From positions 11,848,578 through 11,912,577 of the forward strand of contig NC_136191.1 in assembly GCF_015852565.1 (NCBI RefSeq): DNA of 64,000 bases, written 5' to 3'. This DNA comes from Branchiostoma floridae (lineage: Eukaryota). Position numbers and translations under genes: made by a program. The notes under the pieces are model-generated. The model worked only from the letters and a program-made list of their open reading frames with translations. It was not told where the DNA came from and ran no database searches. The first letter of the stretch is position 1. Every line of letters begins with the position of its first letter. This document shows positions 4,201 through 54,235 of this stretch, one piece after another.

Positions 4201-7200
4201 AAATTTAGGATTAGACCTTCAATAACTAATCAATGATTCAAAGAACACAAAATTAGTATTGTGATTGTTGAGACAGCAAAACAGGTTTTAATACAACAAA
4301 GTTTCAGTAGCATGATTCATGTACAATACAAAATGACACATGACTACTTCAACTAGAAAGGCCGACATTTGCTTAAGAGCAAATACAGCATATTTCAGCC
4401 ATACCCCTTCCCACGCAACATTGGACTGTTCCAAATCACCCCTGCGCAAAAATGGAACATCCTCTTAACAGTACATTATCCCCCAAAGTGGACTGGTATT
4501 GTGAATTGATTCCAGGTAAAAACAGAGCTTGCTTCTATTTTTCAGAAAATGACAATAATCACACCTTCCATTCAGAAAATTTTCATCATGACTGAAAATT
4601 GTTGAATGACTTCATGTAATGTCATTAACAATTTTCAGTACGATAACTAGGTGTAAGTTTAAAAAAGTATAAGCTCCTTGCGATGTGGGTACATTTATTA
4701 TTGCAGTGAACTTTTTTTATTCAAGTAGGGCATACGATTTAATAATTATCAAGCAGGTGCAGGTACTGTAGGAGCGTTTGTTTTCTTCAAGCTGTAAAAC
4801 TGTTAAACTGTTTTACTTTGTATGCAATCAGCCATCGAGCCTATTCTTATTTTAGTTTAACAACTTCCTGCCAGACCCGGAAGATACGATTGAACCTTGT
4901 TCGAGGATTTATTTTCGTCTGTCTGGTCAGTCTGTTCATACCCTGGCGCTGAGAGTGTTTTATTGGGCTGAAACTCTGGCAGTTTAAAGTTACTTACAAT
5001 TTAAATGTTCAAAGTTTATGTCAAACAACAACAGCACTAGGAAATGTGGCCACTATAGACAGGTGGTCACTATAGAGAAAATGCTGATCTATTGACTAGG
5101 AGCCATACGTTACACATGATTTCAGTACACTGATCATTAATCATATAAACATTGCACAGGTAAGCCAATTGTTTAGATGTACAATTTAAAAGTTCAAATA
5201 ATTCTGAAGAGAAATATTGATGAGAAAATAATCATTCTCGCCACTGTCTAACTTATAATTACGTATCAAAACTAAACGCAGATTTTCTAACTAACGCACC
5301 TTTCGCCGACTTCATCAAAGGACCGCCGGCTATCAATCAAACACGGCTGTTGATTAGACTTAGAGTTTCAAACAGTCATGTGCTGTGTGCCAGTTGACAG
5401 CGAACTTCATGCTACGTGATGCTTGCTTGGACCTTCTTTGAAATTCCTACAGCGTGTCAGCGGTGCTTCTACAAAATATTTAGACTGTAACACTGAGTCC
5501 CACATGTTTTATAGAATAGAATTTGACGCAGAACAGCGTTTTTGCTGGGTATTTTTCTTGAAAAATGTCCGTGGGAATATCAGCGAGGCGGCGACGTAGG
5601 GATATCAGACCGTCAACAAAAGTCGCACGGCGGCTAACAGCGCAGCGAAGATACTAGCGCTATAAATAAGCACTTCAACTAAGGATGGCAACCCGTACAA
5701 TATTTTTGTATACTGTTGAGCTAAGTAAAGTTTGTTGTTTATGAGGTTTTAGTTGTCTTTGAAGCTTTGACCCGAAATATTCTAAAGTCAAACTGCTGAA
5801 GAGAAGTAAGTGACTGCTACGATTATCGTAGATATGGCCCTAAAAATGATAAAAGAAGCCTTCTCAATAGTCTAAAATGCAAAAGCTTCCGGGGGGGCTT
5901 CGCCCACCTGGGTCCCCCCCACAGTGGCCTTGCCCCTGGACCCCGCCAGGGACATTCGGCGGCCCCCGGACCCCTGTCCGACGCTTTGAAAAAATCCTGG
6001 CGAGAAGTCTGTACGGCCTGAGTCTTCAAGTTAACGCAGCGTTCCCGCCAGGCATACGTCTTTACGTCTTTGGACGCATTTTTTTCTGGAAAGACGCATT
6101 CGGCTCGGCTGAATGCGTCCATAAAAAAATCTGAAAGAAAGGCTGACCTGAACCACCCGTGTACAAAATGTATCTGGAATCTTTACAAAAATCTGTCTTT
6201 ATAAAAAGGAATCCTACCTTTACAATTTATACTTCAAATTCTTCACTTTCCGGTCATCCCAGTAGTCTGGGCATGGGGCGGAGCGCGGCACGTGTTACAA
6301 CTAGCGGACCCATGTACGACACACCCAGCCACGCGCCAGTCTGAGCCGTCCGTTGCGCAAAGTAATTTTTTGTAGTCCGTGAAATACATCTGACAGTCAG
6401 CATTCTTTAACACTCGAAGAAATCTTATACAGATTTTATATTCTGATATTAACATGATACTTACTTGTTCTCAGTTTCACGTATTTGTTAAAGATTTGTG
6501 GGTAATACTAGTATTGAACAAACAAACTGTTCTGCTCGAGTGCTGCACATCTCAACAAAAGTTCTCACGCTGTGGGCAGTTGATTGGCAGTCGGCAGTCT
6601 TTGACAACAGGCCGCCGGCGCCAAGCAGTCAAGATTGGCCACCAGGTCCAAATCCAATCATCTTAAGAACCAATCAGCGTTTGATAAATGTAATGTTACA
6701 CTCTGTCATTGGTCACCGGGAAAAAACAAAAGTTACCGAGTATTAGCGCACGTGACGTTGGTAGCCACCCGTGTCGTCTGGCAACTTGAGTTTCTTCCCT
6801 AGCTGCTAACAATTTACTATTAAAGTTTCCCCATTTATCCAAGTTAAAAAAAAACGGTGCGCGGTAAATAAGTGAAGAATCCAAAACTATACACTTTATT
6901 TCTTATTTACAAAATTTATTTTGTTTCAAAAAGACAAAATTTGCGGCAAAAAAGGGGCCGCAATATTGTTGTCAAGCGTCGATCGAGTCGGCTGTGCACT
7001 AGCGTTGGCCTCCGTGGCACATGGCGCGGCACGCCCCCCTCCCCAGACGGACCGTCGATCGCAGCGCCCAGCACGTTGGGACGTCTTTCTGGCCACTGCT
7101 TCAAGGCTACACCGGCACAGATCACTGCCAAAGAGGCAACAGATCGTCCTCCTTCGAGTAATGTATAACGTTCTTGGTCTATTTAAAAAGAAATCCAGCC

Positions 7201-10200
7201 AAAGATTTCACGCCGAAAACGGGGTTACCTGAGGTCGCAGGAAACAAACGCACGCTCGTGGAAAATGACGGTATGGCCTTGTAAATTTTTAAAACCCCAC
7301 CGATTCGAAAAATTTGAGTAAAATCATCGGGCAAAATAGAAAAAAACACAGCGCCGTTATTTTATCGTCTCGGAAAACTATTTGATGTGGGAGGGCGCAA
7401 CATCGATCGCACGAGGTAGACATCTTTTTATTCAATGACGGAAAAAAATTGGCATAATTTTTCCATGGGCTGACGAACTAGCTAGAGCCCTGTTTCGAAG
7501 CATCAAAAATCCAAAATTTTCATATAGACATGTCTGGACAAATAAAACCCGGGCCAGATCACGGAAGGCTGATTCCCTGTGCTTATAGCTTTTTTAATAT
7601 AACGTATTTTGATGAAGAGGGTGGTCGTCGATAACTGAAAATGGGAGTAAAAGAGGCAACCGACATCCAATTCCAAGTGCATGATTATCCACTCAAATTG
7701 CAGGAAATTGTGTTCTAGAGGGTTTGAAAATCCAAATTTTCCCGGGGGAGCATGCCCCCGGACCCCCCTAGAATGCGAGCGCCTGCAGCGCTCGTCTCGC
7801 GCCTCCGGCGCTCGTTACGCCCCTCCAAAATATTTGGACGCATATTTTCAGAAACCTGGCGGGAACGCTGAGGTAACGTATTGTGTGGTCCCGCTTATGA
7901 ATATTAATTAGCCTTCGCTTTCCTCTTCGCTGATTGGCTGAACCATTAATTGAATTAACTCTTCCTGCCGGCTAGACGCAGGTGCAGATGTCGGCTCTGT
8001 GGGGTGAACGTCCGAAAGGTCATGGCATGGAGAACGAAAGAAAACCAATTTCCCCTAAAAAAAGTGCTGTAATTAAGCCTTTTACAGTACTTTATGCCAA
8101 AAATTTTACTTGGATCATTTTACCAACTATCTTATGCCTATCTATACCAAATGTTACTCATATCAGGGTACAGGGGTGCAAAATATACCGTTATAAGACC
8201 GTCAACAACAGTCGCACGGAGCTAACAGCGCAGCGAAAATACCATCGCTAGCGTTTCAACTTCGGATAACAAGTTATAAGTACTGTTGAACTCAGTAACG
8301 TTAAAGTTTGTTTTTAGTTGCCTTTGACGGTTTGACCTGAAATAGTGTTACGCTAAACTCCTGAAGAGAAGTTAAGTGACTGCTGCGATTATCATAGATA
8401 TGCCCCTAAGAACTGATACAATATAAAGCCTTCTGAATAGTCTAAAATGCGAGAGCCTTAGGCGGGCTTCGCTCCCACTGGCGGGAACACTGCTATATAC
8501 GGGATCATGAGGCCCCGCTTATGAATATTAATTAGCCTTTGGCCTCCTCTTCGCTGATTGGCTAGGTCTTTGATTCAATTAACTCTCCGGCTGACGCGCA
8601 CAGGTGTGGCTCTGTGCGGGGTCACGGAAGGTCACGTCAGGAGGCCAAAAGAAAACAAATTTCCCCTCAGAAAAGTGCCAAAATTAATCATTTTAAAGTT
8701 GTTTATGTCAAAAATTTTACTTGAATCTTGTTACCAAGTATCTAATGCCTATCTATACCAAATTTCAGGTCATTTAATTGTAATACCAGGGTACAGGAGC
8801 CAAAAGTGTCCTTTTTTGGTCAAAAATTGGCCAAAAATCGCAAAAATAAGCATTTTGTTGCACTGTACACCAAAAGTGTTATTGAATTTATATGAAGGGA
8901 TTATCAAGGCACATCTGTGTCAAATTTCAGCTCATTCGGTTGCAATACCAAGGTACAGGAGCCAAAAGTGTCCTTTTTTGGTCAAAAATTGGTCAAAAAA
9001 TCGCAAAAATAAGCATTTTGTTGTACTGTACACCAAAAGTGTTATTGAATTTATATGAAGAGATTATCAAGGCACATCTCTGTCAAATTTCAGCTCATTT
9101 GGTTGTAATACCAGGGTACAGGGGCCAAAAGTGTCCTTTTTTGGTCAAAAATTGGTCAAAAAATCGCAAAAATAAGCATTTTGTTGTACTGTACACCAAA
9201 AGTGTTATCGAATTTATATGGGGGCATTATTAAGGCACATCTCTGTCAAATTTCAGCTCATTTGATTGTAATACCAGGGTACAGGGGCCAAAATATACAG
9301 TTTTGGTCTAAAATTGACCAAAAAATCTCAATAAAATCATTTTAGAGGCAGATATGAAAAAAACTGAGAAAAAAGCATCAAGGTATTGGCCCATTCTACC
9401 CCTGTGCCAAATTTCAGGTCATTCGGTCCAGGAACGGCGGAGATGAATCACTTTGAAGATTTGACAGGAGAAAGAAGAAAGAAACATTACGAATACAATA
9501 TATTTCACCATACTATGTATGGCTGAAATATAATAAACTCAAACTCAATAAAACACACTTAATGTATACCATTTCAAAAGGATGCACAAGAGTTAACATA
9601 CTTCTGTAAAAAGCTTTCCTTTTTCTTTAGGCCTAGGAAAAAAAATGTTGTGTTTCCTGTTTCAGTCCTGAAAAAAATTGGGTCGGTAGGTAGGGATTAT
9701 CTTCTTTTTTTTCTTGTAATTTTTTTTTGGCTGGCCAAAACTCTAGTGATACATATTACAATACAGTCAAACAAAGTAAACTGAAGTGCATGAGGACACT
9801 TCTCTTTTAATGTCAAACTTTAATTTTGTGCACAATAGATACATTTATCCTTCATTAGATAGGACAAGCAGTGTTTTTGCTTCAATAGGAAGCAGGCTGA
9901 ATAAAAATTCTAACTGGAAACTGTGACTCCTCTGCCCACACCCAAAAAAAGTCTAGGGTCGGCAGGTTTTTCTAGGGTAGGTAGGGAAACAGGAAACACA
10001 ACATTTTTTTTCCTAGGCCTTATAAGGGATACAAACTAAAAATCACAGTTCATCATTGGCATCCCTACCTCATGTTTAAGATCAATGGTGAATTCACTCT
10101 GATGACTTTCCTCAGACCATCTTTTTGCTAGCCTACAGAATGGAAAAGACACCAGAAAACAATTAACACAATTACTTGCATACAAGGGTATAAATATCAT

Positions 10201-22040: not shown

Positions 22041-22235
22041 GACCAATCAAAACTGGCAGATATTGATCTCATCATCAAAGATAGCCAATCGCGGACAGTT
22101 CTGGTCTGCATTCTTCTGACCAATGACACAATGACACTCTTCAATGGGCCAATCGAAAACTAGGGATGCTTAAATACACTCATCAGAGACAGCCAATCGT
22201 GAAAGGTTCTGGGGTGCTTTCAGACCAATGACAAG
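22041..22235. promoter_or_regulatory. Cluster of six CCAAT(C/G) motifs in about 200 bp, spaced 30-40 bp apart
   Basis: gaccaatcaaaactgg, agccaatcgcggacag, gaccaatgacacaatg, ggccaatcgaaaacta, agccaatcgtgaaagg, gaccaatgacaagcc. It lies immediately upstream of a CpG-rich segment (22260-22440) that ends in a consensus splice donor gaagagag|GTGCTAAG. Confidence 0.4.
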
Positions 22236-22249
22236 CCAGGATTCCCTCA

Positions 22250-25200
22250 GCGTACTAGCAGGTGACAATATTTGCACCTGTGGTGAGCACACCAGTTCTA
22301 AAAAACCGACGCGAGCCCATTGTTATCACTCACGGTCGATTCAGCAACCAGCGAAGACCGTATCCGTTCCGCGTGACAGCGCGCCGTGAGCTGAAATGTG
22401 CGGCCTCGGGAAGACAGACACGACCTGGAGAAGAGAGGTGCTAAGAGTTACCCTACCAATGGCAAGAGTTACCGCAAGAGCACCCACGACATCGGCAGGC
22501 CGAGGAGCCACCAAGAGAACCTACGCTGAGACCTGCGGTGTTCTAAAAGGTGAGACGTTCAGCCAGCTTGTTCGAAACATTCAAACGTCTTTGCCTTCGC
22601 AGCATTTTGCCTTCCATTTACTGACACCACGGATGCTTTAATGTTATCTCAGGCTCTATGTCTGCTTCCCCGAATCCGCCACTAGGTATGTTTTATATGT
22701 CTTGTGTCCGTTAATTAAAGACGTCGGACACTATCCGGTCGCAACTTCAAATTGTAATTCCACTTGTTAACTTTGGAGCTTTTGTTTCTTGCAGTGCGGT
22801 GGGTGATGGTAGGATATGCAAGCATACCGGCCCACCTGAAGCAATGAAGACCGTACCCATTTCTTCTCGCGGATAGCGCACGGCAAGCCGAAATCACGGT
22901 GCAGCCGCTTGAAGGGAGACAAGGAGCTGGGGAAGACTAATGCTGAAAGCTACCGTAATGCTGAAAGCTACCGTAACGCCCGCGACAACGTCCACGGCAT
23001 CGCCCTGCCAGCTCACCGTATGCTTCTCCTCGGAGCCTCCAGCCTCATCTACAAAAGTGACATTGGTGTTCGAAACAGCCGCCAAGCCACGTCGAGAGTT
23101 CGAGGCTTTTTTATTTTCCTTCCGCGAGAGAAAGTAGTCCGTTCTATGACTTCGGGCGTCACCAGCCCCTACAAGAAAGCTTATCGCAGGAGTACATTAC
23201 CGTTTATCTTACCAATGTCAAGTTATTTACAATATTTTAGACTCATTTATTATCTCTGTGGATTTTTGAACCGATAGTTTATCGTTTTCCCGTCAATAAT
23301 ACGGCTCAAAATCTCGTGATTTTCGTGTAATTTCCCCTCATATTTTTTAACTGTTGTAGATTTCAAACCAACAGGAATTTGGGACCACAAGAAAGAGCAA
23401 ACATTGTAGTTTCTGTCGGTATAAGGCTCATCATAGATTTTGAGGGCGTAATGCAAATGCCGCCAATCCGCGCGGAGTCATGTCATAATTTTGACTCCAG
23501 AATAGAACGCGCCCGATTTGACTTTTTCAGTAAATATCGACTCTGGACAGGTCTTCGTCCCATAGATATCGAATCTTTGACCGGAACTAAGTTAACAGTG
23601 GTCCCCCGTATATAAATTCCAACTTTCAAGTTGATATGCCAATCCGAGATGATATAAATATAACTTCAAAAGTTCTAACTGACTACCGTAGCGAACCGCG
23701 TGCCGTTTTGGGACAGTTCTGCGTTCCATGACCCCCGGGCGTTGGGACTACTTACAAGAAAGCCTGCTGCTTGAGTTTACAACTATGTATATTCATCATT
23801 TCATCACATATACAACTTTAAAGCTTCTCACTTCACTCCTTTGGATTTTTAACAAATTTGTCTAGCTGTATCCATTTGATTTTATAACCTGAAATCAGTT
23901 GATTTTAGTGCAATTTCCACCGCTTTATTATCTTGTGACAGATTTAAAAATAAACGGAAAATTTAGTGCACAGAATAGCCCGAATTCTCTTCTTTCAGTC
24001 GGTATATGGCATACTATCCATTTCGTGGCAGTAATAGGCTTTTTTCCCAATTGCGCGAGGGCACCTCATCAGAGGCATTCAAAAAAGAACGCTTCCGCCC
24101 TTGCGTCAACGCCCGTTCCACGGAGCCCGCGCCAGACACGCACCGCCGTATTTGCGTCCTAGTTGCCGTAAGACCAATGTAGCATTTGCTAATTCAGTCC
24201 GTCTCAACACTGTTTTATTCCGTATGCGTCCTCTAACAATACCGGGGATGTGCATCGGTACCGCAACTTGTGTTAAAAAGCCAGCTGTACTCGAATCAGC
24301 TACACCAACAACTTGCAATATTTGCGCGTAAAACAGTAGATAAGGTGACCCCGATAGACATGGACTTTCAAACATTTCCAAATTTCAAACCAACAGGATC
24401 TTTACATGAGTTGTAGTCGAAGATTCGACAAAGCTAATTCACTAGTTATTAAATATAGAATCGAGGGCGTAATGCAAATGCCGTCAATGTGAAATTCGTC
24501 GAAATTTTTGCCCCGTACGGCACCGCCATTTTGCTAATTTTACTATGTAACAAATATGACCATGAAACTAACTTTTATTGCCGTAAAATACCCCCAAAAC
24601 GGTTTATACAGAGAGCACATGGTGTTCCCTTCTTGTACATATAACGCAATATTTGTAAAATGGCCGCCAAATAGGTTTAAAACAGCTGTTTAAGTCGGGT
24701 GAAATTTCATCCAACTGTCACGCGACAAGCCTTTCCTTAGCAACGACGTTGCTAGGGACCGCGGAACACTTCGAACTGCAAATAAAAACGGTTCTATTCG
24801 TGTTCGATTTACTGCGTGGCTTGGCGGCTGGAAAAGGTGAGACATTCGAAGATTCAAATGTCTTGCATTTGCTTTCGCAGCGTTTTGCTTTCTATTTACT
24901 GAAACAACTGATATTTCATTGTTATCATATACTCTATTTCCCGACTAGTGTTCTGCTCGTGTCCGCACGTCATGGGCACAGTCCGGTCTCAATTTCAAGT
25001 AACATTTCTAATTGCAATTGAACACCCCGGCGTTAACCAGCCTTTGTTTCTAGTAGCTTTGCATCAGCTCTGAACCCCAAATCAGAGGAAGGGCGTGTCA
25101 GGTACTGAAGCCGATTGAAGAAGCTACGAGTGCCGAAAAGTGATGCCGCGAGTGCCGTACACCCCCGTGTTGTATGCAGCCAAGTTCCTGAGGCACCGTG

Positions 25201-25660
25201 AAGAAAGACGAACTGTTGACGTGACGTGATATCACCACTGTGAGTCGATCCTACTTGCAACTTGCTCCAACTCAACGCTGATGACTTTGGGCGATTTTTG
25301 GATACTTCTTTTTTTTCTTCTTACTTAGAGGGAAAGAATTACAACAGAGCTTTTATTTACGTGAGCAAGAAGCCTGGCTGTCCGTTTTTATTGCCTGTAA
25401 TTTGACTTTGTTGTCGCGAACCGTTTGGTTACAGTTGCCATTGGGCCTTTGTTTCTTGCAGTGGTAGGTGAGGGAACTTGATGCGTACACCATGTCTAGC
25501 GGAGTAATCGACGTAAGACAGGACAGCAACAGCTACCGATCAGCCCCGTTGTATACAGTACATGAAGCACCATGAACACTCGACTGGTGATATCACACCT
25601 GTAAGTTGATCTTACTCAACTTGCTCCAATGACGTGACGCCGATGATTCCTTTACACTTG
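22250..25660 (+). other. Tandemly duplicated CpG-rich non-coding exon-like modules (possible 5' UTR exons or lncRNA locus)
   Basis: Module pairs: 22540-22650 is similar to 24830-24940 (aaaaggtgagac(g/a)ttc...caaa(c/t)gtctt(t)gc(c/a)tt(c/t)gc..cgcag...ttactga.ac...gtta). 23440-23475 is similar to 24460-24495 (gagggcgtaatgcaaatgccg). 23350-23375 is similar to 24385-24405. 25150-25285 is similar to 25520-25650. The acceptor-like motif ttgtttcttgcag|tg.ggt.ggtga is repeated at 22790, 25045 and 25460. No protein-coding frame is conserved between the copies. Confidence 0.35.
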
Positions 25661-25794
25661 CTTTATATAGCCATAAAGCTGTTGTAATTATATCAAAGAA
25701 AATGTTAGCCTGGTCGTCTTGTTCTTATGCCTGTGATTTGACTTCTTTGGGAGTGACAAGAAGCTGGGAAGGAGACGTCTCGGCAGCTTCCAGT

Positions 25795-26060
25795 CAGAAG
25801 AGACTACCCGGTGTTCGTGTCAGAAGTGATTGTTGTATTTTCGTGAGGGCTTACGTGTCCCATATATGTAATTCGTAGGCAGACGAGTTTGATTTACCGT
25901 TCTTCGTAGAGAATCTAGTCTTATTCACGTAACCCGGTGTTCGTGTCAGAAGTGATTGTTGTATTTTCGTGAGGGCTTACGTGTCCCATATATGTAATTC
26001 GTAGGCAGACGAGTTTGATTTACCGTTCTTCGTAGAGAATCTAGTCTTATTCACGTAATT
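25795..26060. repeat. Direct tandem duplication, roughly 131 bp x 2
   Basis: 25798-25929 and 25930-26060 are near-identical (cccggtgttcgtgtcagaagtgattgttgtattttcgtgagggcttacgtgtcccatatatgtaattcgtaggcagacgagtttgatttaccgttcttcgtagagaatctagtcttattcacgtaa). Confidence 0.85.
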
Positions 26061-26389
26061 CGTAGAAAGGTGACCAAGTGTTTTGTAATTGCTTTCCTTG
26101 ATTTTCGCGTGATATGTAAGGAGTTCTTCTGAATTCAGTGTAAAGCGTAATCAGACCAACCACCCATAGGCAGTCATTCTTAGCAGCCTCATGTTTTATC
26201 AGCAACATCTTTTTATTTTATTTTCAAAATGTATTATGCTATTCCAGTACTGGACTCTCGATGGCTGGCTCTAAATTTTTGCTTTCATGTCTTTGCATAT
26301 ATGAGTGAACAAGTCTTTTGTTCTCACATTAAGCCGTTTTTATTTCATGTATTTTGCTTCCGTTCTTGTACAGCAGTGGCCAACATTAA

Positions 26390-28510
26390 CAGTTTAGAGT
26401 TTTGCAAATGTTGATATTGCCGCTGTCATTGGTGTTGAAGTAGCTTGGGGTCTTTTGTTCTTGAAGTCCTGTGGAAAGTTCGCTGCTGAAGGCTGAGGCT
26501 AACGTTCGGACACTTATATCGCGTACTAACACACAAACACGCGCGCACACACACTTTAACACTACATGTAGTAGCACACATTAACATCTAACAGTGGCAC
26601 GTGGCACATTAACGTCTACCACCATCACTCAGCACAGTAACATATTAATACACTATCACTCTGAACAACCGTCTGAGCCTTCTGAAAGCAGCACATAACT
26701 TTTCACATGACTTCAAGTACGGATGGCTTCAAGTTGCCTCCACCAATACACCGGCGATGTCAACATTTGCTAATTCTGAACTGTTATCCACTTTTGTATT
26801 GGAATGGAGACAAAATACGTGAATACACGAGCTTTGAGAGCAAAGGTCTTTCATCATGATGCAAATAGGCTTTTTATATCTTTATATGCTTTAACAAAGC
26901 CATCGACAGTAATGTACGTTTAGCAAAGATGTTTTAGGTAAACAATAGTCTCGCTAGCTAACATGAGTGTTCTACGAATGCCTAGTGTAGAATAAATATA
27001 TGTAAACAAATGCCTGACTAATGTTTTAAGCCCGACCATGAAACAAACATTGCCTTGTGTCCCTGAATGTTACATTATCCAGTTTGCTATATTCGAATGT
27101 ACTTAAAGTTTTAGTCAACAAAAAAGAAAGGTTGCTTTCATCTCTAGCTCACTTCGTATAATGCTCATGTCCAAGCATACTTCGTATAATGCACTTATGT
27201 ACAAGTATTCAACGATTCAATTACTGGATGTATATAACGTTATAGTGCAGATAGACGACGGCAGTTCTGATAACATCTACGATTGTTTGAAGTTGGCAAA
27301 CTTAATTGTGTCGCCACTGGAGTTGGAGTGACTGAAATAAACGAATGTTTGTTTTGTGTCCATTCATTTACATTATCAACAGTGAATAAAGCCTTTTGCT
27401 CTCACTTTGCCTGTCTATTTCTTGTGTTTCGCTTCATTCTTGTACAAGAGTGGCCACATTGTCCTAGAAAGGCAGCAAAACACTTGAATAAAAGTGCTTT
27501 GAGAGCCAAGGTCTTTCTTCGCTGAGATAGACTATATCTTTGATTACGTTACCAAATTGACATTTGAGACGTAGTTCTAATAAAGCCAAGCTTAACTGCT
27601 GTGGTATGTTTAGGATATAAGGAAATGTGGTTGTAAAAAGTGTAGAATAAAGCCTCTATCTTAAGCTCGATTATGTAAACCATGAAACGACCTTGCCTAT
27701 GTTATCAAATACCTTGTACAAGAGTTGTCAACAGTTCGGAATCAAGCAGTGTTGATGTTGTCGTTGGTGTTGAGGTAACTTCAAGTGAGTCTTTGTACTT
27801 GACGGCCTGTGGAAAGTTCGCTGCTGAAGGCTTATATTAGACTGACGTTCTATCACTTGGTGTGTGTACTAGCTTGTGTTAATATCTCGCACGGACACAC
27901 GCATTACACCACACGTTAACATCTAACACCGGCACTTGGCAAATAGTCCACCACCATCACTCAGCACAGTAACATCTTAATACTTAACACTCGGAACACA
28001 ACTATCTTGGCTTTTTTTTTTAAGCAGCGCAATAACTTTTCGCGGAACTTCAAGTACAAATGGCTTCAAGCTATCTCCACCAGCACACCGACGATATATT
28101 AATATTTACGAATTGTAAACTGTTAGCAACTTTTGTCCTTGAGTAGAGGCTTTGAGAGCAAATGTCATTTCTTGGCCCTTCAGGATCTTTTTAGAACAAT
28201 CTTTGTCAGTTTTTTATACTGTTGTCTGAACATATGATCAAGTAAATCATGAAATACTTGAACAATATACTCAGATCTAGATCAATATCATTCACTATGT
28301 ACCCAAATCAAAAATGTGTATGTTGTATATTATCAAATTAATTCATCAGATGGGTGTGCTATTATTAGCCTTTATATTTCTTGTATTTCGCTTTATTCCG
28401 GTACAAGAGTGGCCACCTTGTCCCAGAATGGCAGCAAAATACGTGAATACAAGTGCTGTGAGAGCCAATGTCTTTTTGCTAAAGTTGACTCGGTATATTC
28501 GTTGTCTTAG
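26390..28510. repeat. Roughly 1-kb tandem repeat, about 2.2 copies
   Basis: 26395-26880 aligns with 27745-28180 (tgttgat.ttg.cg.tg...ggtgttga.gta.ct...cctgtggaaagttcgctgctgaaggct...cactcagcacagtaacat.ttaatac...). 27400-27530 aligns with 28370-28500 (ctt.tatttcttgt.tttcgcttt.attc..gtacaagagtggccac.ttgtcc.agaa.ggcagcaaaa.ac.tgaata.aagtgct.tgagagccaa.gtcttt), and also with 26790-26850. Confidence 0.7.
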
Positions 28511-34458: not shown

Positions 34459-37400
34459 ATGAGAACGGAGATGATACTCATAAGAACCACATTGTTGCTG
34501 CTGGTGACTCTGGTTGTGTTGAACGTATCGTGTGTGGGGTCTACCAAGGCGCAGCGCAAGTCCACGAACGGATACCAGGGAGGGACCAGGTAAGATTTCA
34601 TATGAATGTGATATAACGTTACATGCAGTTATTAGTATTACCAAGCAAACGTAACGAAGTGTGTTCAAGCGCAACATTGTAGAGAGTCAATGGTAATGAT
34701 GCTCAGGTGCAGATGTGAATGCGTGATATCAGCATGTCTAATTGTCTCCTGAATCACTCCTTGTAATAGCGTGGGCCCATGAGTGTTGCCCAGGTCACGT
34801 ACCCTTTGTAGAGTCGAACACACACGACCGTAATTTTTCTGCACTCAATCTGTCTCGAAAGTGTTTGCACGTGTCCAAAGCTTTGTGTATCATCAGATGC
34901 AACAATCGGTCCTTTGTGTACGCCCATGAAAACCTTAGCTGTGTCCTTTAAGAATCAGTTGGCTGGTTGAATATTATGTACTGGTTGCTACCCCCTGTTC
35001 CTATGTTTTTTAACTGTAAGACATGATGCCTCTGTCGGATAATATGAGGGTGATTGCTAAAGATACCGAAGACAAGGTTGTGAACCTGACTTTGAAAATG
35101 TCTACACGTTAGGTACGAAGCACACTGCACTGCATTATTATTGCTCTCACGCCCATCCCGTCCCTACCATTACATGGGTGTCGGGGATAGCACACAGCGT
35201 ACCGCACCTCGGCACGGCAGGAATTCTTACAGACTTGACTCTGGCCCGTGGATGGCATGTTAGGATGTGTGTATGGCGGCATGGCGACTACTCCTGTACT
35301 TTTCAGACACAGCCTCAAAAGTAACCATACAACACGCAGAGCCGTTTCCAGAAACATCACGTATTTAGGGGGAGCTCCGAGAATGTCTGTCAGATGGTCC
35401 TGTGCAATATTGAACAGTGATGGTGATTAACTTAAACAGTTATCCCCACGGGACAACAACGCAGGAAAATTGCAAGATCATAATGTTTTTTTTAACATTC
35501 CTTTGCGTTAACGTTGTCCTTGATTCGTTTGTGGCGACAGAAGACCTTGTCACCACGCCACTTGTATCCCTATGCCACTTTGTAATCCTGTTTTATCTGG
35601 CATGGGGACTTCGGATGAATTATGTCCACTATAACTACCAATAAACTACCTAATGAGACCAATTGCAAGCCCGCCTCTAGACACTACACAAACAGAAGGT
35701 GCTAGCCCGTCCCCTGTTTAACCTGAAGGTAATGCCTTGAACCATGACATGTTAATCTAACACAGTTGTTCCACAACCCTTACTTCCACAAACGTTATCT
35801 AATAAAGGGTTAATGCCCCGCCCCGAGGTGTATATGGTGAGATAATCCCTGGTCAGGTGCGATAACCACCGAATAAACCACCGAGTGAGCGTAGCGAACG
35901 AGGTGGTTTATGAGGTGGTTATCGCACCTGACCAGGGATTATCTCACCATATACACCGAGGAAAAGGCGGGGCATTAACGTTATTATCATATAGCCTATT
36001 CAACTGACACATATAGCCTATCCAACTGACACAGGGCGTTTTCTGCGTGTTTACTGTAGCAACCTGCGGATGACCGCGGGTGACCCCCGGTAGAACGCCC
36101 GTTCTGTTCGATCACGTCAGATCGAACAAGATTCGTGTTCTAATACCCCGAATAGAAGTCAAATTTGACCATCGGGCTTGTTTAGTGGGGGTGTTGAAAG
36201 TCATGTTCAATCTTTTTCTATTTAAAAATCATTGATATCTTTTTAATTGTGTTGTAGTTTAACATAAATTGTTCGAAATAATGTACAGTACGCTGTTTAA
36301 TAGATATAATCGATAAATACTTAAGACTAGTATTAGCGTCCTGTCCCCTCTATAATGGTGCGGTCCAAAAAGTGGTCGGTTATTCTAATAACCGACCACT
36401 TTTCAGGTTACTGCCTGATAACCCATAGGAAATGGGGGCCTCTGATTGGTCAACTCCATCTGGCTATATGATAATACATCTTAGATGTCAACATCTTAGT
36501 GATATCCATTGCATATACATGACCTTCCGTGAGCTAGACATCCTTGTCTGAGCCGTGAAGCCGACATATTTTGATATGGTGTTTACTTTTGAGCCGTCAA
36601 CCCAACGTGCAAGTGTAATTATGACATCTGAAATCTTATACGATGCTGTTTATTAAGAAGATCACTATTATAAGTGACATGGCTTTAGGTTAAAATGTCA
36701 TGCCCATAGTACCCAATAGACACTGTGAGCATTCTGGCTACTTTCCGGTTTAGATTAGTACATAGACAGAAGGCCAGGTATAAGGTAAAACGAACTCCTC
36801 CTGGACATGTGTTTTCTGTTATACGTGCTTGTGCTATCTTTGTAATACCTGTGAGAACAAATTATGGCCACGGCCAGTTCTAGAGAGCTAAGTATGTCTT
36901 GTCCGCTCTTGCATCACTTGTCTGGAGGTGCCTTGGCAGCGATTATTTCTGATTAACAGTCTTGTCGCCATAGTCGTGTATGGATGGAGAATGTCACGGC
37001 TTGTAACATTGATAAATAGACAGAATCTGTTAGATGATAGATAAAGTCAGAAACAGTCACCTGCGATCACCTGTATACACTGAGCTGCAGGTGCAAGTTA
37101 TTTTCCTCACACCCTGTAAATCTAACCCTTGTAGCATGTCTATTTAAAATCCATTATGTAAGCTTTTAATCATGCTGAAGTCAGACAGGTGGCACTGACA
37201 GTTCAAGGTGAACAGGAAGATGGCGACTTTGCTGCGGGCAGTCCTCTTTGGACTTTTTTAGTTTGTATGTATTGAATAAACGTGGTGCATATTCATGATA
37301 CTTAACATTGATTTAATCGGTTCAGAATGTCATCAATAGAATGAAGTGCTTCAGAAAACGTGCTAAGAGTTGAGGTCGCGTAGTAACTTGTTAATTACCT

Positions 37401-40400: not shown

Positions 40401-42785
40401 CTCTTCGCGTTGCACCTGGTTTCGAATGGCAGCTAGTGATGAATGGCGTCTGTGCCCTTGGGTAGCAGAGTACGGGTGGTGTCTGGGGCCTTGGTTGGTC
40501 TTGGATCATTCTTGCAAACTCTTTATCATGGCTTTATTAATCCAATCAAAATCAATCAAAATAAAATGTCGCATTAATCGAGTTTAAGACCTGCTTATGA
40601 GACTCGGATGCCCAGGAGTGTTTTAATGTTTCCTCGTACAAACTCCCTTTAATAGCAAAGAAATCTTTTTGTTTTCGAAATTTCACAGGGGCGCAGGCTC
40701 ACATTGATATTGGCGGATGCACAAATCACAGATCCTCTTGAAATGAAAGATAGTAGTATGCCCAAAAAATACAACAGAAGTCACATATATTCTGAATGAT
40801 ACAGTTCAAGTCCCAGGCGAGAAGACAATGGATGTTACATCCCAGACAGCTGTTCAGGAGTGCTGTACATTTGTTGATCCAACAAGACCCATACATACAC
40901 CACTACCTCATATATTACACTCCTGTCTGCGCCGTTATCTCCCAGTCCCTGTCTCTGTCACGGCCGCCATGCTCCCTGCAGAGATAAGTGCTTGTTTTCA
41001 CACAAGATAAACAGGTGGCTGACCCAGCATAAATGTTTGGCGCGACTGAAGGGTTTCTACTTCTTCCAATCTACACACTGGAGAGTATATTAGGGCTGCA
41101 GTGCGTTGTTAGGAATGGCAACAACTAAAGCAATATTAGCGACAATAATAAACGACAAGAAAACGTATACGACGATATGAATTAGCATTGCGATTGGTTT
41201 TGACTTCTCTGTTTGTGCAGCATAACTCAAGAAGCTGTGGGTGGATCTGTGTGATATTTGTTATGTAGCAAATGTTACGGTGGCAAATGAAGGACCATTT
41301 TGATTGAGGGCCCCTGACGCCTTCTCAAAGTACTGCAGCATAGCATTTAGTTTGTGTATCAACAATATAAGATTATATAATCCAAGCTACCGATGATGTA
41401 TGACACAAGTCGCATAACGTACGTCTTGAGCTCTTGTCCGCTGAAAAGGTAAATCACCCAAAGAAATAACATGTCTGCACAGTTTGTGCATGTACCGAAC
41501 TTGAGAGGAAATATGTTCCTGCTTACCCTTTCAATTGACACTTAGTAATATGTGATGAGGCACATATGAGAGGGTTATGCGTTGTAATTATATACAGAAC
41601 ACAGGCGGACTGTTGAAAGACACATAACTCTTTTAACAGGCCATGTTTCAGCAGCCAAATGTTTGATCTCAGAGTTTACATAACCCAAGTTTAAAAGCCT
41701 GGCTAGTCCCCAAACTTAGCAGACGTAAGTTGTGAGGAGACCGCATGAAGTGTTATTTCTGTGTAAGTTATCCTTTGTTAACATTGACCACAGACTGTCT
41801 GGCAATTTGAAGTAGAAAACATCCGGCTGACGAGTCCAACCCTGTTTAATGTTTAAGTAACAGTCCGATCAATCTAAGTGGGTTTTAAATCTACTTTCAC
41901 TTGTTTGCTTTTCTACTGAGTAAGGCAGGCACGGTTTAACGGTTCATTGTGATTTGCTATAATGGATGTGTTGCCTGATTTGTGAACGTTGGGTCAAATG
42001 TGACTATCTTTTCTTTACAAAGATTAGATTCATAATATTATAGTGGTTGTATAATATAATGCATAATGAAGTTGAGAACACACTGACTACTATTATGTGT
42101 AACAGTTATGCATAGTGACAAATTCTTTTAGGTGCCTCTTCTTCCTATGGTTGCCCAACCTGAAAACGACAGCCTATTCAGCAGCCATTTCTGCATCAGA
42201 TTCAGCACTGAGATTCAGCCCCTAGCATCACGACAGAAGCACAAACCAGCCGCCAAGCCTACAGCTTAGAAAAGTGCTATCGTAGTAACGTTAACTTTTT
42301 TTCCCTTATTTTTTCGTTTTCAGTAACTGGTGCGCCTACACAGTGTCCAAGCAGGTGTCCTGTAAGGTTAAGAATGGCTCGGCAGTCTACAAACAAGCCT
42401 ACTACATGCCGGGGTGCTCCGTCTGGAAACCTGGCAACTGTTACAGGTAGGCTGGGGAGTATCGTGTGCGGGGCATGTGGCATGGGCAAAGTCAAGACGT
42501 CACTGTGAGCCCTCTCACGGTTAGAGATCTGAACGCATGTGCAGCGACAGGAATTCTAGGTGATATGTCAAAGGTAAAGGCCATAAAAAAGAAAACAGCC
42601 CTTGTCCTGACCATTGTTTCGATTTGCATAACAACGTCCAGGTGGGTTTTGTTTTCTTTTTCAGGGCCTTTACCTTTGATGTATTACCTAGAATTCCTGT
42701 CGTCGCACATACGTTCTGATCTCTGTGAGAGGGCTTATTGTCAGGATTTATGGTTGCTAATACCGTTGTAGTTATATGGTGATGG

Positions 42786-42884
<99 letters not shown>

Positions 42885-44879
42885 TGCTGATGATGATGAT
42901 GATGATGATGATGACGATGATGATGATGATGATGACGATGATGTTGATGATGATGATATAGAGGTGGTCACTAGCACAGATTTGACTATGTACTAGTGAT
43001 GGTCGTGTTCACTATCTCTGTCAGGTACCGGCGGACAGTGCGTCCCACCTACCGAGTGGCGTACAAGACCGTCACGGCCATGGAGTGGAGGTGCTGTCCC
43101 GGCTTCCAGGGAGCAACCTGTCAGGACAGTACGTAAACTAGAGTAGTCTCGTTGTAGTCTCCACCAGATTGACTACGCTTGCTATTGTAGGGACAATAAT
43201 TTGACAGGTGAGTTTTGCTACCAGAGGAGTTGGCTGACCGCTCAGCCAACTTTCCGGAGGGGAAACATTTTAACCTTAGCATGGACTGACTATCCAGATT
43301 CTTTTGCGGAATTCTACGATCACCGTACCCCAGTAAGAAAGTGGGGCTAGTCTCATTAGTTCAGTGCCCGGCTTTAATATTTTCCCATTATGTGCTAGAG
43401 GTAACAACGATTAGTCAAAGTACAATGATAATTGTACGCGACAAGGAATCTCCAAGATGAGATCTACCGGGTTGATGAAGAGACAAAGTGCGTCTCAAAA
43501 GCTTCCCAAGCTACGAACTGTAGTTGTGTGTATTTTGTTAAAAATTTGGTCATACTTCCACAGCTTGCTTCAACTGCACTCGTCTGACAGCTCTAGAGAA
43601 GCGGATGAGTGCTCTGGAGAACACAGTAAGTCTTAGCATTTCACTCACTTTCTCTTTGCGATAACTGTAGAATATGTTTTATTTTCATGTATTTGAACTT
43701 TGATCATGACTTAATTCTCCAACCTCAGTTAGCTACCATTACATGAAGCTAGTCTGCGATTTTCTGTGGTACAGAATAGACCAAACGCAACTATTGAAAT
43801 TTTACAGTTTTGTGAATCTCCTAGTCCATATATAATATTCTTATTGCAGGGTCTACCGGTTAGTAGTGACACGAAAGATATGCCAGTCGGCCCACCCCCT
43901 GTCACAAATGGCAAGAAAGCCGACTCGGAGGTGTTATCGACAGGACCTACAGGGCCCGTGGGTCCCCGTGGCCCCCCGGGTCACCCCGGGATTCCCGGGC
44001 GAGCGGGTCCCGAGGGCCCACGGGGAAGGCCCGGGGCACAAGGACCTACCGGGCCTCAAGGGCCTCCAGGACAACCTGGCTTACGGGGAGAAATAGGCTT
44101 ACCTGGGGAACAGGGTGAGTTAGCGAATTATATCAATTTGGTGAGTTGTTGTTGTAGGTACGTAGCAAAAGTTATGAAATAGATGACGAGGATTAGACAA
44201 GTTATGTAGGGGTCAACTGCGCCGACTCCCTTGTAATTTTCTTAAATAAACTTGCATATAACTGTTACATACAATTTACGTTCTGGATCTTTTTTGTAGG
44301 CGAACCAGGCATGCCTGGGACGCCAGGGTTCACCATGGAGGGTTTGCCAGAAGGTATGCCTGACATGTCGGCACTACTCCGCAAGGTGGATCTCCTAGCG
44401 AACAGAGTATCCTTATTGGAGGAACTCATGGCAGTGACGTCAGAAGGTATGAAAAAGGAATAATCTCGTCAGTGACTATGACTTGCCTATAACGTAATTT
44501 TTATGTGTAATTTTCCTGTACTTAACATGACTCGAAGAGCACACGTGTCAATAATTATAACTTCTTACAAAGAATACTCATAATTACCTGTCGTTCCACA
44601 GCGGGTGGATTTCTGCCCGGAGGAGGACCATCTTTACGCCCAGGACCGGGCACCTCACCTAAACCTGACGTCTCGTCCCCCGACTCGTCCCCAGGACCCG
44701 ATCTCGTCCCCAGGCCCCGTCCTGACACGTCACCAACTCCTGCTGAGTTACCAGAACCTGACGTCATCAGTCCTGACGGCAGACCTGGCTCTACCATATA
44801 CCCAGGGTTCCCCGGGGCTGACTATGAAGGGTCAGCAGACCACAATCTACCATTCCTGTTTGAGAGTGAGACTGTATGA
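34459..44879 (+). CDS. EMI-domain-containing short collagen (EMID1/Emu1 or COL26A1-like), 7 exons
   Basis: Exon 1, 34459-34589: signal peptide [27 protein letters not shown], donor GTAAGA. Exon 2, 42324-42446: [41 protein letters not shown] (EMI domain N-terminal half). Exon 3, 43024-43127: [33 protein letters not shown] (EMI C-terminal half with the WRCCPG motif). Exon 4, 43564-43625: [21 protein letters not shown]. Exon 5, 43850-44114: Gly-X-Y run [57 protein letters not shown]. Exon 6, 44300-44447: [11 protein letters not shown] plus coiled segment. Exon 7, 44602-44879: Pro/Ser-rich tail, stop TGA at 44877-44879. Splice phases are consistent across all junctions. Confidence 0.8.
35810..35960. 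repeat. Near-perfect roughly 150-bp palindrome (hairpin with roughly 60-bp arms and roughly 20-bp loop)
   Basis: gttaatgccccgccccgaggtgtatatggtgagataatccctggtcaggtgcgataaccaccgaataaaccacc [gagtgagcgtagcgaacgag] ggtggtttatgaggtggttatcgcacctgaccagggattatctcaccatatacaccgagg aaaa ggcggggcattaac. The arms are exact reverse complements apart from a 4-nt bulge. It lies in intron 1 of the EMI-collagen gene. Confidence 0.85.
36355..36405. repeat. Second short perfect hairpin (17-bp arms, 3-nt loop)
   Basis: aaaagtggtcggttatt cta aataaccgaccactttt, about 500 bp downstream of the large palindrome. Confidence 0.8.
42779..42957. repeat. (GAT)n microsatellite, about 60 units with a few GAC and GCT interruptions
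   Basis: Directly visible. It lies in intron 2 of the EMI-collagen gene, between the two EMI-domain exons. The poly-Ser and poly-Met ORFs at 42741-42977 are artefacts. Confidence 0.95.
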
Positions 44880-46602: not shown

Positions 46603-46912
46603 TCACTGTGCATTTTGCACATACCAGACTCAATCGTGCCACTGAGCACTGCATTTTGCACACACCAGACCAATTGTGCCACTGAGCACTGTGCATTTTG
46701 CACACACCAGACCTATCGTGCCATTGAGCACTGTGCATTTTGCACACACCAGACCTATCGTGCCATTGAGCACTGTGCATTTTGCACACACCAGACCAAT
46801 CGTGCCATTGAGCACTGTGCATTTTGCACACACCAGACCAATCGTGCCATTGAGCACTGTGCATTTTGCACACACCAGACTCAATCGTGCCACTGAGCAC
46901 TGTGCATTGTGC
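46603..46912. repeat. 48-bp minisatellite, about 6.5 units
   Basis: The unit cactgtgcattttgcacacaccagacc(a/t)atcgtgccattgag is repeated head-to-tail. The ORFs 46571-47029, 46615-46896, 46630-46914 and 46676-46918 are artefacts of it. It ends 38 bp upstream of the ATG of the 385-aa ORF. Confidence 0.9.
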
Positions 46913-46949
46913 AAATAAAGTCAAGCAAAGAACACATATATTGTGAACA

Positions 46950-51247: not shown

Positions 51248-51830
51248 TACCCGCCATCCCTCTGTCCCGGTGTTAACTAGGAGTACGCCTACCGCTGGTT
51301 ATCTTTGCAAAGCTCGTGTGAACGTTTGTCAATGTTTAACCCATAGTCTAGTATCAACGACTGTAAACTTGCGTAAAAAGTTGTCGGTCATTTTTACGAG
51401 TATCGTGTATGATGTATGCGTAATGTCCACGGACTGATACTTTTTGTTTGTGCGTAAAAAGGCCCCATTAAATGATGAAATACGATGTAAAGTTTGACCT
51501 TGTCAAGCAAAGTCTTATCCTACTAGTGAAGTGAGTACTTAAGATACCAACAAGCAAGAAGACAACTTCATTGAATATGTTAGCGTATTTTTCTTTATTT
51601 CTTTATCTAAGTTTGATTTTGTTTGAACCTTTATCTAGAGTCAACGACCGTCCATCATATCTATTTCCATGATGAATCCACTATGCACAATAAATATAAG
51701 AAAACGTACTGTTTTATATAGGTCTAAGTTTAACAGCATTAGACAACGTCTCTTGAATAGTTTTCTAACTGGTTTGAAGTTACTAACAGATTTCTATTTG
51801 GTAACCACTTTTTTTCCAGCCTTTCAAAGA

Positions 51831-53620: not shown

Positions 53621-54235
53621 ACCCCGCCATGACTGTGTGGACTGGGGTACTGGCGCTTTTGTCCGTTCGCTATTGTATTGGCTTCGTGTGAGGGTAAATA
53701 TGATTATTGCAGAAGTACACGTGTACTCAGAGTTAATCATTACTTATATATAACAAGTACTACCACGTAATTGAGCTGTAGTACCTGGCATTAGTGCTGT
53801 AAATTGAATTCTTCTTGGATTACATTTTAAGGGGCGTGCCCGCCTTGCGTTACGTGGTCTTTGTAGTTTAAACTCTATATCACATCAAGTTCTCAGTGTG
53901 AATTACATGTTGTGTAGTTGGCAAAGAACTTAAGATGTCACAGACTACAAGTAATACACAGTAATACACAGTACAAAGAGTGCGATTCGCATTGTGACAG
54001 GTCAAAGAAATAAATAGTGAAAAGCAGACAAAGAAAGTTTGTTCGTTTGTGACAATTTCAATGTATAGAATATCAAAGTTCTGGTCTACCTCTTTATTCT
54101 TTGCAGACAGTCCTCATTTAAAAAAGGTAAGGATACCTGAGTTATGGCTAAAACGCTTTAACAATGTATTCATTCTAGTCATGATCACATGGGACGACAA
54201 TGACATGTTTACAACTCTTCATTCATATCCGCCAT

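Follow-up and report, generated by a model that had tools for sequence, protein, structure and literature searches.

Within the 64-kb stretch of Branchiostoma floridae DNA analysed here (the window, 64,000 nucleotides), six NF-Y-type CCAAT boxes stand at the 5′ edge of a CpG-rich block, and four non-coding exon/intron-like units follow in tandem, the second of them interrupted by a DNA transposon. These features suggest that an NF-Y-type promoter borders an unmethylated domain and would drive a non-coding or 5′-UTR transcript, a reading that we place midway between doubtful and probable.

A duplicated array of CCAAT boxes

22041 to 22231, + strand: six-box CCAAT array, with RRCCAATSR matches at 22041, 22083, 22118, 22147, 22191 and 22223

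The six NF-Y-type CCAAT motifs of the original prediction were confirmed by a motif scan and by Markov simulations. All six boxes match RRCCAATSR, the consensus with NF-Y-type flanks, within 191 nt; all are in + orientation, with CCAAT itself beginning at 22043, 22085, 22120, 22149, 22193 and 22225. The array holds 6 of the 18 RRCCAATSR matches in the window (both strands scanned). In 150 simulations of a 64-kb first-order Markov sequence, the largest cluster within 200 nt had three sites and arose once. The array consists of a ~106-bp three-box unit repeated twice in tandem (22043-22128 aligns with 22149-22233 at 73% identity); with the tandem copy collapsed, three sites in 110 nt are still above all simulations (maximum 2). 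The boxes had also been described as evenly spaced, which holds only roughly: the box-to-box distances are 42, 35, 29, 44 and 32 nt, and three boxes were duplicated once.

NF-Y double sites have a minimum spacing of 19 bp and preferred spacings of 24-28 and 35-37 bp (PMC4889920). All distances in the array exceed 19, that of 35 falls inside a preferred class and that of 29 adjoins one. Between the two array copies, the box columns are identical at 25 of 27 positions versus 35 of 64 (55%) outside the boxes (binomial P = 2e-5), a statistic possibly inflated by alignment anchoring. No further array copy was found in the rest of the window or in L002, an amphioxus locus of 43 kb (B. lanceolatum, CM068863.1). 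Four of the 12 other consensus boxes fall in 5-8.6 kb, the sole other CpG-rich region of similar size. That region lies between - strand B3GLCT-like exons, for which a word-indexed protein search matched only distant vertebrate B3GLCT proteins, and a gene-like run of + strand ORFs. Two further word-indexed searches with proteins of the window gave no match. We consider the array a credible candidate cluster of NF-Y sites, bordering the CpG-rich block on its 5′ side.

A CpG-undepleted domain beginning at the array

That a CpG-rich block follows the CCAAT boxes was borne out. The CpG observed/expected ratio (o/e) rises from 0.05-0.5 at 18-22 kb to 0.9-1.3 at 22.2-26 kb and then falls to 0.6-0.85 farther downstream; the step-up at 22.2 kb coincides with the array. 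The CpG-undepleted domain starts ~0.4 kb past the final AATAAA in the CpG-depleted sequence that precedes it. At 22.2-22.6 kb the sequence reaches CpG-island values (GC 0.53-0.57 and o/e 0.86-1.17, for thresholds of o/e >= 0.6, G+C >= 0.5 and >200 bp); the rest of the block has a GC content of 0.40-0.48. The highest CpG density belongs to the transposon at 23076-24830 (o/e 1.28), not to the exon-like modules, and without the transposon the o/e of the block is 0.89-0.99, modestly above the unmethylated baseline of 0.6-0.85 downstream.

GC skew is slightly negative over 22-25 kb; in vertebrate CpG islands, a negative skew is atypical downstream of a + strand start site. Amphioxus carries 5mC only in gene bodies (PMC6292497), and in a mosaic-methylated genome an o/e near 1 marks any unmethylated DNA. 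Its composition indicates that the CpG-undepleted domain is germline-unmethylated, with the array at its 5′ edge.

The position of the array at exactly this methylation boundary argues against an alternative in which the locus, as unmethylated intergenic DNA that lies downstream of a neighbouring gene, consists of neutral, minisatellite-like tandem repeats, with functionless motifs and nothing transcribed. Such an origin also sits poorly with a single 106-bp unit whose three consensus boxes are already beyond chance, with the selective conservation of the boxes between the array copies, and with the concentration of consensus boxes in the window's other CpG-rich region.

Tandem exon/intron-like units

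Four non-coding units lie in tandem at 22.3-25.8 kb (495, 503, 405 and ~345-370 bp). Each is made up of an exon-like part, a GT donor and an intron-like part, and a clear AG acceptor was assigned to units 1-3. The segments are as follows, with a slash at the donor or acceptor junction.

22300 to 22549, + strand: exon-like part of unit 1 (E1), in which 22346-22494 aligns to 22839-22990 of unit 2; the 5′ limit is approximate
22550 to 22794, + strand: intron-like part of unit 1 (I1), with donor aag/GTGAGAC (PWM score 10.7) and acceptor ttgtttcttgcag/ (9.8)
22795 to 23075, + strand: exon-like part of unit 2 (E2), which the transposon cuts 2 nt before the donor
24835 to 25056, + strand: last 2 nt of E2 and intron-like part of unit 2 (I2), with donor aag/GTGAGAC at 24837 (10.7) and weak acceptors at 25053 and 25056
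25057 to 25461, + strand: unit 3, with exon-like part 25057-25239, donor act/GTGAGT, intron-like part 25240-25461 and acceptor ttgtttcttgcag/
25462 to 25805, + strand: unit 4, with exon-like part 25462-25600, donor cct/GTAAGT and a decayed intron-like part without a clear acceptor; the 3′ limit is approximate, and alignments took 25462-25830 and so reach into the first part of the 126-bp duplication
25806 to 26057, no strand assigned: 126-bp tandem duplication, its two copies 100% identical

Once the 1,755-bp insertion is excised, units 1 and 2 are 75% identical end to end over ~500 bp, with alignment z scores of 18.5 for the exon-like and 22.6 for the intron-like parts. For other pairs, z is 10.1 (I3 vs I4), 4.0 (E3 vs E4) and 4.6 (I1 vs I3). 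The best conserved 20-mer of units 1 and 2 is the donor junction (19/20), and the donor module aaaag/GTGAGAC is present in two copies, at 22550 and 24837. The acceptor common to units 1 and 3 is identical at 17 of 19 positions; its module, ttgtttcttgcag/tg, is found twice, at 22794 and again at 25461, and a third, degenerate copy lies at 25053/25056. By PWM, the unit donors score 10.7, 10.7, 6.5 and 6.8 and the acceptors 9.8, 6.5 and 9.8. E2 also holds an 18-bp micro-duplication (two copies, 22938-22973). A duplicated promoter or leader-exon unit had been proposed for this region. The duplication of the unit is real, as the z scores of units 1 and 2 attest, but the promoter was not co-duplicated: there is no second CCAAT array, and no significant similarity to the array was found upstream of the later units.

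Neither the window nor L002 contains other copies of units 1-4. The 126-bp duplication was considered as a fifth and sixth unit and rejected, having no significant similarity to units 1-4. Local tandem repeats are found elsewhere in the window at 8.6-9.5, 20.8, 25.8, 26.3-28.5 and 46.6 kb.

Several observations favour the neutral-repeat explanation. Splice-like motifs show no excess, with donor- and acceptor-like counts matching the chance expectation on both strands, and exon-specific conservation is absent, since identity is 62% in the exon-like versus 72% in the intron-like parts. A transposon insertion was tolerated in unit 2, and many other local tandem repeats are present in the window. 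Weighing these points against those from the array, we regard neutral repeats as a somewhat unlikely origin of the locus. Because the splice motifs are not enriched and conservation is lower in the exon-like than in the intron-like parts, the sequence does not show that the exons are used.

A transposon inside unit 2

23072 to 23075, no strand assigned: left copy of the target-site duplication GAAA, from the empty-site comparison with unit 1
23076 to 24830, no strand assigned: non-autonomous TIR DNA transposon of 1,755 bp with 16-nt perfect terminal inverted repeats
24831 to 24834, no strand assigned: right copy of the target-site duplication GAAA, from the same comparison

The segment at 23076-24830 is a class II TIR element inserted into unit 2. 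Its terminal inverted repeats, CAGCCGCCAAGCCACG at 23076-23091 and the reverse complement at 24815-24830, are 100% complementary; by hand calculation, the chance expectation of a 16-nt inverted repeat pair is ~0.002 for a region of this size. Unit 1 provides the empty site: its sequence ggtgttcTAAAaggtgagac is identical at 19 of 20 positions to unit 2 minus the insertion, ggtgttcGAAAaggtgagac. Direct repeats are present inside the element at 23130-23515, 23712-24097 and 24366-24488. We term the transposon non-autonomous because no Pfam domain, and with it no transposase, was found in it; the 4-bp duplication and the CAG... terminus are not diagnostic of a superfamily. A partial copy exists in B. 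lanceolatum (L002 33215-33663, CM068863.1; 79.5% identity over 449 nt), which begins exactly at the terminal repeat and is without the right end. The CpGs of the transposon are kept between the two copies.

The octamer+CCAAT modules, gagggcgtaatgcaaatgccg, lie inside this element in two copies, at 23442-23467 and 24463-24488. The repeated modules of the region had been taken as one system, and this stands for the exon/intron-like units, which are in tandem, but not for the gagggcgtaatgcaaatgccg modules, which are internal repeats of the transposon. An origin in a known transposon, the alternative set beside the original prediction, applies in part: to one of the three module types and to the stretch with the highest CpG density.

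Several candidates were discarded. The segment 24650-24836, considered as an alternative first exon ("exon 1b") with an octamer, CCAAT-like and YY1 promoter, is the right end of the transposon. A 13-nt partial match at 42247 to the terminal repeat is compatible with chance. The octamer module had one match among metagenome contigs, in a 65%-GC bacterial contig with only a 21-mer in common, which we attribute to chance. Separately, a sacsin-like RefSeq protein model of B. lanceolatum owes its 40 C-terminal residues to the same transposon family; this tail is probably an annotation artefact and possibly a transposon turned exon.

As part of the region is demonstrably transposon, it is natural to ask whether the whole block is, with the array and units forming the promoter or leader of a mobile element, for example an LTR12-like solo LTR or the 5′ monomers of a retroelement. 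The U3 enhancer of primate ERV9/LTR12 carries NF-Y-bound CCAAT boxes in 5-17 tandem repeats of ~41 nt (PMC11853044), and the window itself contains a 42-bp x7 array with CCAAT-type boxes directly upstream of a transposon-like 385-aa ORF, for which an exact protein look-up gave no match. The region of that ORF is, however, strongly CpG-depleted (o/e 0.14-0.44), unlike the array block. Moreover, neither a second LTR nor any transposon protein domain was detected at 18-34.7 kb, and searches of the window and the 43-kb L002 found no long direct repeat pair and no recurrence of the array or units 1-4. We consider a mobile-element origin of the entire block very unlikely.

Coding potential, RNA genes and the downstream gene

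The absence of a reading frame conserved between the copies was upheld: E1 has stops in all three frames, most frames across the unit copies also contain stops, and indels shift the frame between copies. Every stop-to-stop ORF of the window with 70 aa or more was compared with Pfam, and none at 18-34.7 kb yielded a domain; and a 145-aa ORF had no Pfam match. With phmmer, searches against 1.84 billion representatives matched only the transposon-derived part and one low-complexity protein. No coding sequence is detectable between about 18.4-21.7 kb and 34.46 kb; the gene-free stretch of the original prediction is in this sense correct but longer than the 10 kb given.

Searches for RNA genes were likewise negative: no snoRNA, snRNA or SL RNA by Rfam at gathering score in the whole window, only noise-level Rfam matches at E <= 10 in 21.5-28.5 kb, and no tRNA by ARAGORN. 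These results weigh against the idea that the intron-like segments are the functional or mobile part, either as a small-RNA host similar to a snoRNA host gene or as an introner-like element with its own splice sites. The idea would account for their better conservation, and a donor-proximal hairpin (GAGACRUU/AAYGUCUU) is present in both copies with one compensatory change. However, the folds are no more stable than shuffled sequence (z = +0.25 and -1.0), and we rejected the hairpin as a structured element, its stability being at the shuffled level in a comparison of two sequences. Inspection by eye showed no C/D or H/ACA box arrangement, nothing in Rfam rose above noise, and the segments number only 2-4 copies, all adjacent, with none elsewhere in the window or L002. 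A functional or mobile role of this kind appears extremely improbable.

34459 to 34589, + strand: nearest downstream + strand coding exon, the signal-peptide exon of an EMI-domain collagen gene

This exon has a donor score of 11 and a phase that fits the EMI exon. A spliced model with exons 42324-42446 and 43025-43128 gave a Pfam EMI match (E = 9e-17), and a collagen exon was also detected. It is a possible splice target of a transcript from the array. Candidate motifs for a separate proximal promoter of this gene are a CRE at 33704 and an ETS motif at 33720.

Discussion

The explanation that we favour is an NF-Y-type promoter followed by non-coding or 5′-UTR exons. The structural steps can be read from the sequence: a 106-bp segment with three CCAAT boxes was duplicated in tandem to give six boxes, and a ~0.5-kb exon/intron-like unit was amplified by tandem duplication to four copies. 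Later, the 1.76-kb transposon landed in unit 2, 2 nt before its donor, and with it came the octamer-containing modules and the peak in CpG density. The locus may still be undergoing remodelling by unequal crossing-over or replication slippage, as the perfect identity of the two 126-bp copies at 25.8-26.06 kb suggests for the recent past. NF-Y boxes typically lie at about -60 to -100 from the transcription start site. The array would be bound by NF-Y and form the proximal part of a rightward RNA polymerase II promoter, with transcription starting ~60-100 nt past the last CCAAT box, near 22.29-22.33 kb. The product would be a spliced non-coding RNA, or its exons would serve as distal 5′-UTR exons of the EMI-collagen gene.

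As splice-like motifs are at chance density and no reading frame, Pfam match or Rfam match was found, we only infer transcription. The modest CpG excess that remains without the transposon, the slightly negative GC skew and the EMI-collagen gene's own promoter motifs all count against this explanation, and the disruption of exon 2 by the transposon argues against strong constraint on that exon. A bolder version, that this is a young lineage-specific non-coding RNA gene still growing by duplication of exon-intron units, with a doubled NF-Y promoter and a transposon that possibly added an octamer/CCAAT-type internal promoter or new exon sequence, seems decidedly unlikely.

Should the array prove to be a working promoter, the locus would offer a clear cephalochordate case of tandem duplication multiplying NF-Y sites and whole exon-intron units, and the transposon insertion, once dated, would serve as an internal time marker. 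For annotation, its value is that part of an apparently single system of repeated modules is a transposon.

The components of the locus can be compared with known systems. Like MITE-like non-autonomous class II elements, the transposon lacks a transposase and has TIRs, a 4-bp TSD and subterminal direct repeats, and its homologous copy at an unrelated B. lanceolatum locus fits this class; classic MITEs are shorter, whereas this element is 1.76 kb long and CpG-rich (o/e 1.28). The units resemble lineage-specific arrays of lncRNA or 5′-UTR exons in being short, ORF-less pieces bordered by GT and AG behind a promoter-like element, although their exon-like parts are no more constrained than the intron-like parts and the exons are putative, read from the sequence alone. 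With ERV9/LTR12, the locus shares CCAAT boxes multiplied through a short tandem unit upstream of non-coding, spliceable sequence. It differs in its 106-bp three-box unit and its cephalochordate host, and no paired LTR or retroviral ORFs were found, nor further copies in the window or L002.

Finally, the array can be set beside multi-CCAAT promoters bound by NF-Y: the Mrps12/Sarsm promoter has an array of four CCAAT boxes (PMC1802594), and "double CCAAT" platforms have been mapped by ChIP-seq (PMC4889920). The array differs from these in its six boxes, more than usual, in one recent-looking tandem duplication with irregular spacing of 29-44 nt, and in being known from its sequence alone. It is alike in its NF-Y-type flanks, single orientation, extent of ~200 bp, spacing above 19 bp and position at a CpG-rich edge. 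Overall, the locus has the look of an ordinary promoter or of a non-coding RNA locus, and it leaves current understanding unchallenged.

CCAAT array

Between 22043 and 22229 the + strand carries six CCAAT pentamers; all six fit the NF-Y-type consensus RRCCAATSR, which occurs only 18 times in the entire window with both strands counted. Overall, the window contains the bare pentamer less often than expected (119 observed versus 162 expected), and across 150 Markov-simulated sequences of 64 kb no cluster exceeded three sites per 200 nt or two per 110 nt. The array is a ~106-bp three-box unit that was tandemly duplicated once (22043-22128 and 22149-22233, 73% identity); a single unit, with three sites in 110 nt, already exceeds every simulation. 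The original prediction of six candidate NF-Y sites is supported, while their even spacing holds only roughly (42, 35, 29, 44, and 32 nt). Every spacing exceeds the 19-bp minimum, and they coincide in part with the classes of 24-28 and 35-37 bp described for paired NF-Y sites (PMC4889920). Identity between the copies reaches 25 of 27 columns within the boxes versus 35 of 64 in the spacers (binomial P = 2e-5), so that the boxes appear to be under constraint, with the caveat that aligners anchor on shared motifs.

CpG is scarce within the array (o/e 0.45), which adjoins the rise to a CpG o/e of ~1 at 22.2 kb and lies ~0.4 kb downstream of the last AATAAA (21653) in the CpG-depleted region upstream. 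About 30-50 nt past the last box, the mutually complementary E-box-type motifs CAGGTG and CACCTG flank acaatatttg (22259-22281); E-boxes between or beside double CCAAT sites have been reported for NF-Y/FOS-type platforms (PMC4889920).

Transposon insertion

A sensitive self-comparison of the region gave several repeat pairs with differing offsets. Within it, 23076-24830 is securely identified as a 1,755-bp transposon insertion, backed by a target duplication and an empty site. The arms of its perfect 16-nt inverted repeat lie at 23076-23091 and 24815-24830, and GAAA stands on either flank as the target duplication. Removal of the element and one GAAA restores ggtgttcGAAAaggtgagac, 19 of whose 20 positions equal ggtgttcTAAAaggtgagac in the first tandem unit, which provides a paralogous empty site. 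The left arm is also the exact start of homology to a 43-kb Branchiostoma lanceolatum locus (L002, CM068863.1): window 23075-23513 matches L002 33215-33663 with 79.5% identity over 449 nt (E = 4e-105), and window 23712-24068 matches the same segment at 65%. A Pfam search of the element's ORFs found no domain.

The element contains three internal direct repeats:
23130-23515, first repeat
23712-24097, second repeat
24366-24488, third repeat

These repeats carry the module gagggcgtaatgcaaatgccg, which is the octamer ATGCAAAT followed by CCAAT or TCAAT. Three repeated module types had been proposed; this one belongs to the element, and the exon-like modules stand. Two internal repeats agree at 25/26 positions of the octamer-CCAAT module, in surrounding repeat sequence of only ~79% identity, and the L002 copy departs from the module at three positions; constraint, gene conversion, and recent internal duplication are all possible. 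The element has the highest CpG content of the 22-26 kb block (o/e 1.28); 21 of its ~25 CpGs are present in the L002 copy, and both loci have an o/e of 1.25-1.33.

An ORF from the region, used as query in an exhaustive phmmer search, matched the C-terminus of XP_066267511.1, a RefSeq sacsin-like protein of 6360 aa from B. lanceolatum, whose last ~40 residues are translated from a copy of the element's family. This tail corresponds to L002 33216-33339 and begins exactly at the terminal repeat; it is probably an annotation artefact, or possibly a transposon turned part of an exon.

Tandem exon-like units

Without the element, the remainder resolves into a tandem array of four units:
22300-22794, unit 1, 495 bp
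22795-23075 plus 24835-25056, unit 2, 503 bp
25057-25461, unit 3
25462-~25805, unit 4

Units 1 and 2 align colinearly end to end with 75% column identity, and their Smith-Waterman z-scores against shuffles are 18.5 (exon-like) and 22.6 (intron-like). Units 3 and 4 resemble each other (z = 4.0 and 10.1) and show weaker kinship with units 1 and 2 (z = 3.3-4.6), with which they share the acceptor motif ttgtttcttgcag. The tandem duplication of exon-like modules is thus upheld by the alignments and z-scores obtained after excision. An alternative reading, in which introns alone were duplicated, arose from matching exon 1 to the right end of the transposon and was wrong. A donor-like GT is present in all four units (scores 10.7, 10.7, 6.5, and 6.8), and an acceptor-like AG in units 1-3 (9.8, 6.5, and 9.8).

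The main rival to a transcribed, spliced locus is that the array and the units are neutral tandem repeats. The frequency of donor- and acceptor-like motifs at 22-26 kb matches the expectation from the whole window and is the same on both strands, and identity between units 1 and 2 is 62% in exon-like and 72% in intron-like parts. As originally stated, no reading frame is conserved between copies; stop codons interrupt most frames of every exon-like piece, and indels disrupt any common frame. Rfam searches of the whole window and of the region matched no family. Units 1 and 2 both retain a short donor-proximal hairpin, with a single compensatory change, and its folds were no more stable than those of shuffled sequences. 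The element sits within exon-like part 2, which it would lengthen or disrupt.

Candidate downstream gene

Gene content was assessed by Pfam on translated ORFs:
1624-2329 (1.6-2.3 kb), - strand, Fringe-like (B3GLCT-type) exons
42.3-44.2 kb, + strand, EMI domain and collagen exon
60.8-64 kb, titin-like I-set/fn3 exons

Fish and frog proteins share 50-59% identity with the B3GLCT-like exons. No coding exons were detected between ~18.4 kb and 34.46 kb. Beyond this interval, an EMI-domain collagen gene was reconstructed by hand:
34459-34589, + strand, signal-peptide exon, its ATG opening a typical signal peptide
42324-42446 and 43025-43128, + strand, EMI exons
~43800-44100, + strand, collagen exon

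A strong donor (score 11) closes the first exon and leaves the phase that the EMI exon at 42324 needs; the spliced model codes for a full-length EMI domain (E = 9e-17) and, after it, collagen repeats. A long (GAT)n microsatellite (42780-42955) lies in the intron separating the EMI exons. A CRE and an ETS motif lie 0.75 kb ahead of the ATG, and there is a moderate acceptor at 34362. The gene may have its own proximal promoter, accept upstream 5′-UTR exons, or both.

CpG landscape and other repeats

CpG density forms a mosaic along the window, which is metazoan nuclear DNA:
1-5 kb and 9-22 kb, o/e 0.15-0.5
5-8.6 kb and 22-26 kb, o/e 0.9-1.3
most of the remainder, o/e 0.6-0.85

This mosaic is explained by amphioxus 5mC, which is nearly confined to gene bodies and negatively correlated with CpG density (PMC6292497). 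Of the 12 consensus boxes outside the array, four fall in the second CpG-rich region (5000-8600, o/e 0.9-1.16), in both orientations (6668+, 6706-, 7931-, and 8555-). Flanked by the B3GLCT-like exons on the - strand and a + strand ORF run that looks like a gene (13.5-18.4 kb), this region is likely a bidirectional promoter.

Five repeat families are common to L002 and the window, which places the window in a cephalochordate, most likely a Branchiostoma species. A ~160-bp tandem repeat (8550-9550) has homologues (62-70%) in tandem repeats at three L002 sites and therefore represents an amphioxus-wide satellite-like family. A 126-bp segment is tandemly duplicated at 25806-26057; its 100% identity marks a very recent event, unrelated to units 1-4. 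Direct and inverted repeats of 70-85% identity cluster at 26300-28500 (for example, 26424-26797 with 27759-28136, and 26344-26488 inverted against 26689-26823), probably as several copies of another dispersed element. A 42-bp tandem repeat (46603-46920, ~7 copies) has a CCAAT-type box in each copy, GACCAATCG in two and variants in the others. It directly precedes the ATG of a 385-aa single-exon ORF (46950-48107) with a weak, sub-threshold Pfam match to the herpesvirus tegument N-terminal (cysteine protease) region. CpG is strongly depleted in this area (o/e 0.14-0.44), and 46603-48107 looks like a methylated mobile element with the CCAAT tandem array as its own promoter. Three paralogous - strand exons at 49700-55000, with motifs RSHD(S/T)D(K/H)(D/N)..LDGLEI(M/L)AA(V/I), suggest a small tandem gene family; a Pfam search of them gave no match.

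Discussion

Four structural features are secure: the duplication of the CCAAT array, the tandem array of four units, the transposon insertion, and the 126-bp perfect duplication. From the motif statistics, the conservation of the boxes, and their position at a methylation boundary, we infer as the most economical functional reading that an NF-Y-type promoter would drive a spliced non-coding or 5′-UTR transcript. A transposon origin of the whole block is a less likely alternative. Comparable CCAAT arrays are known both in host promoters (PMC1802594; PMC4889920) and in LTR12 elements (PMC11853044), and an array of this kind is therefore not new.
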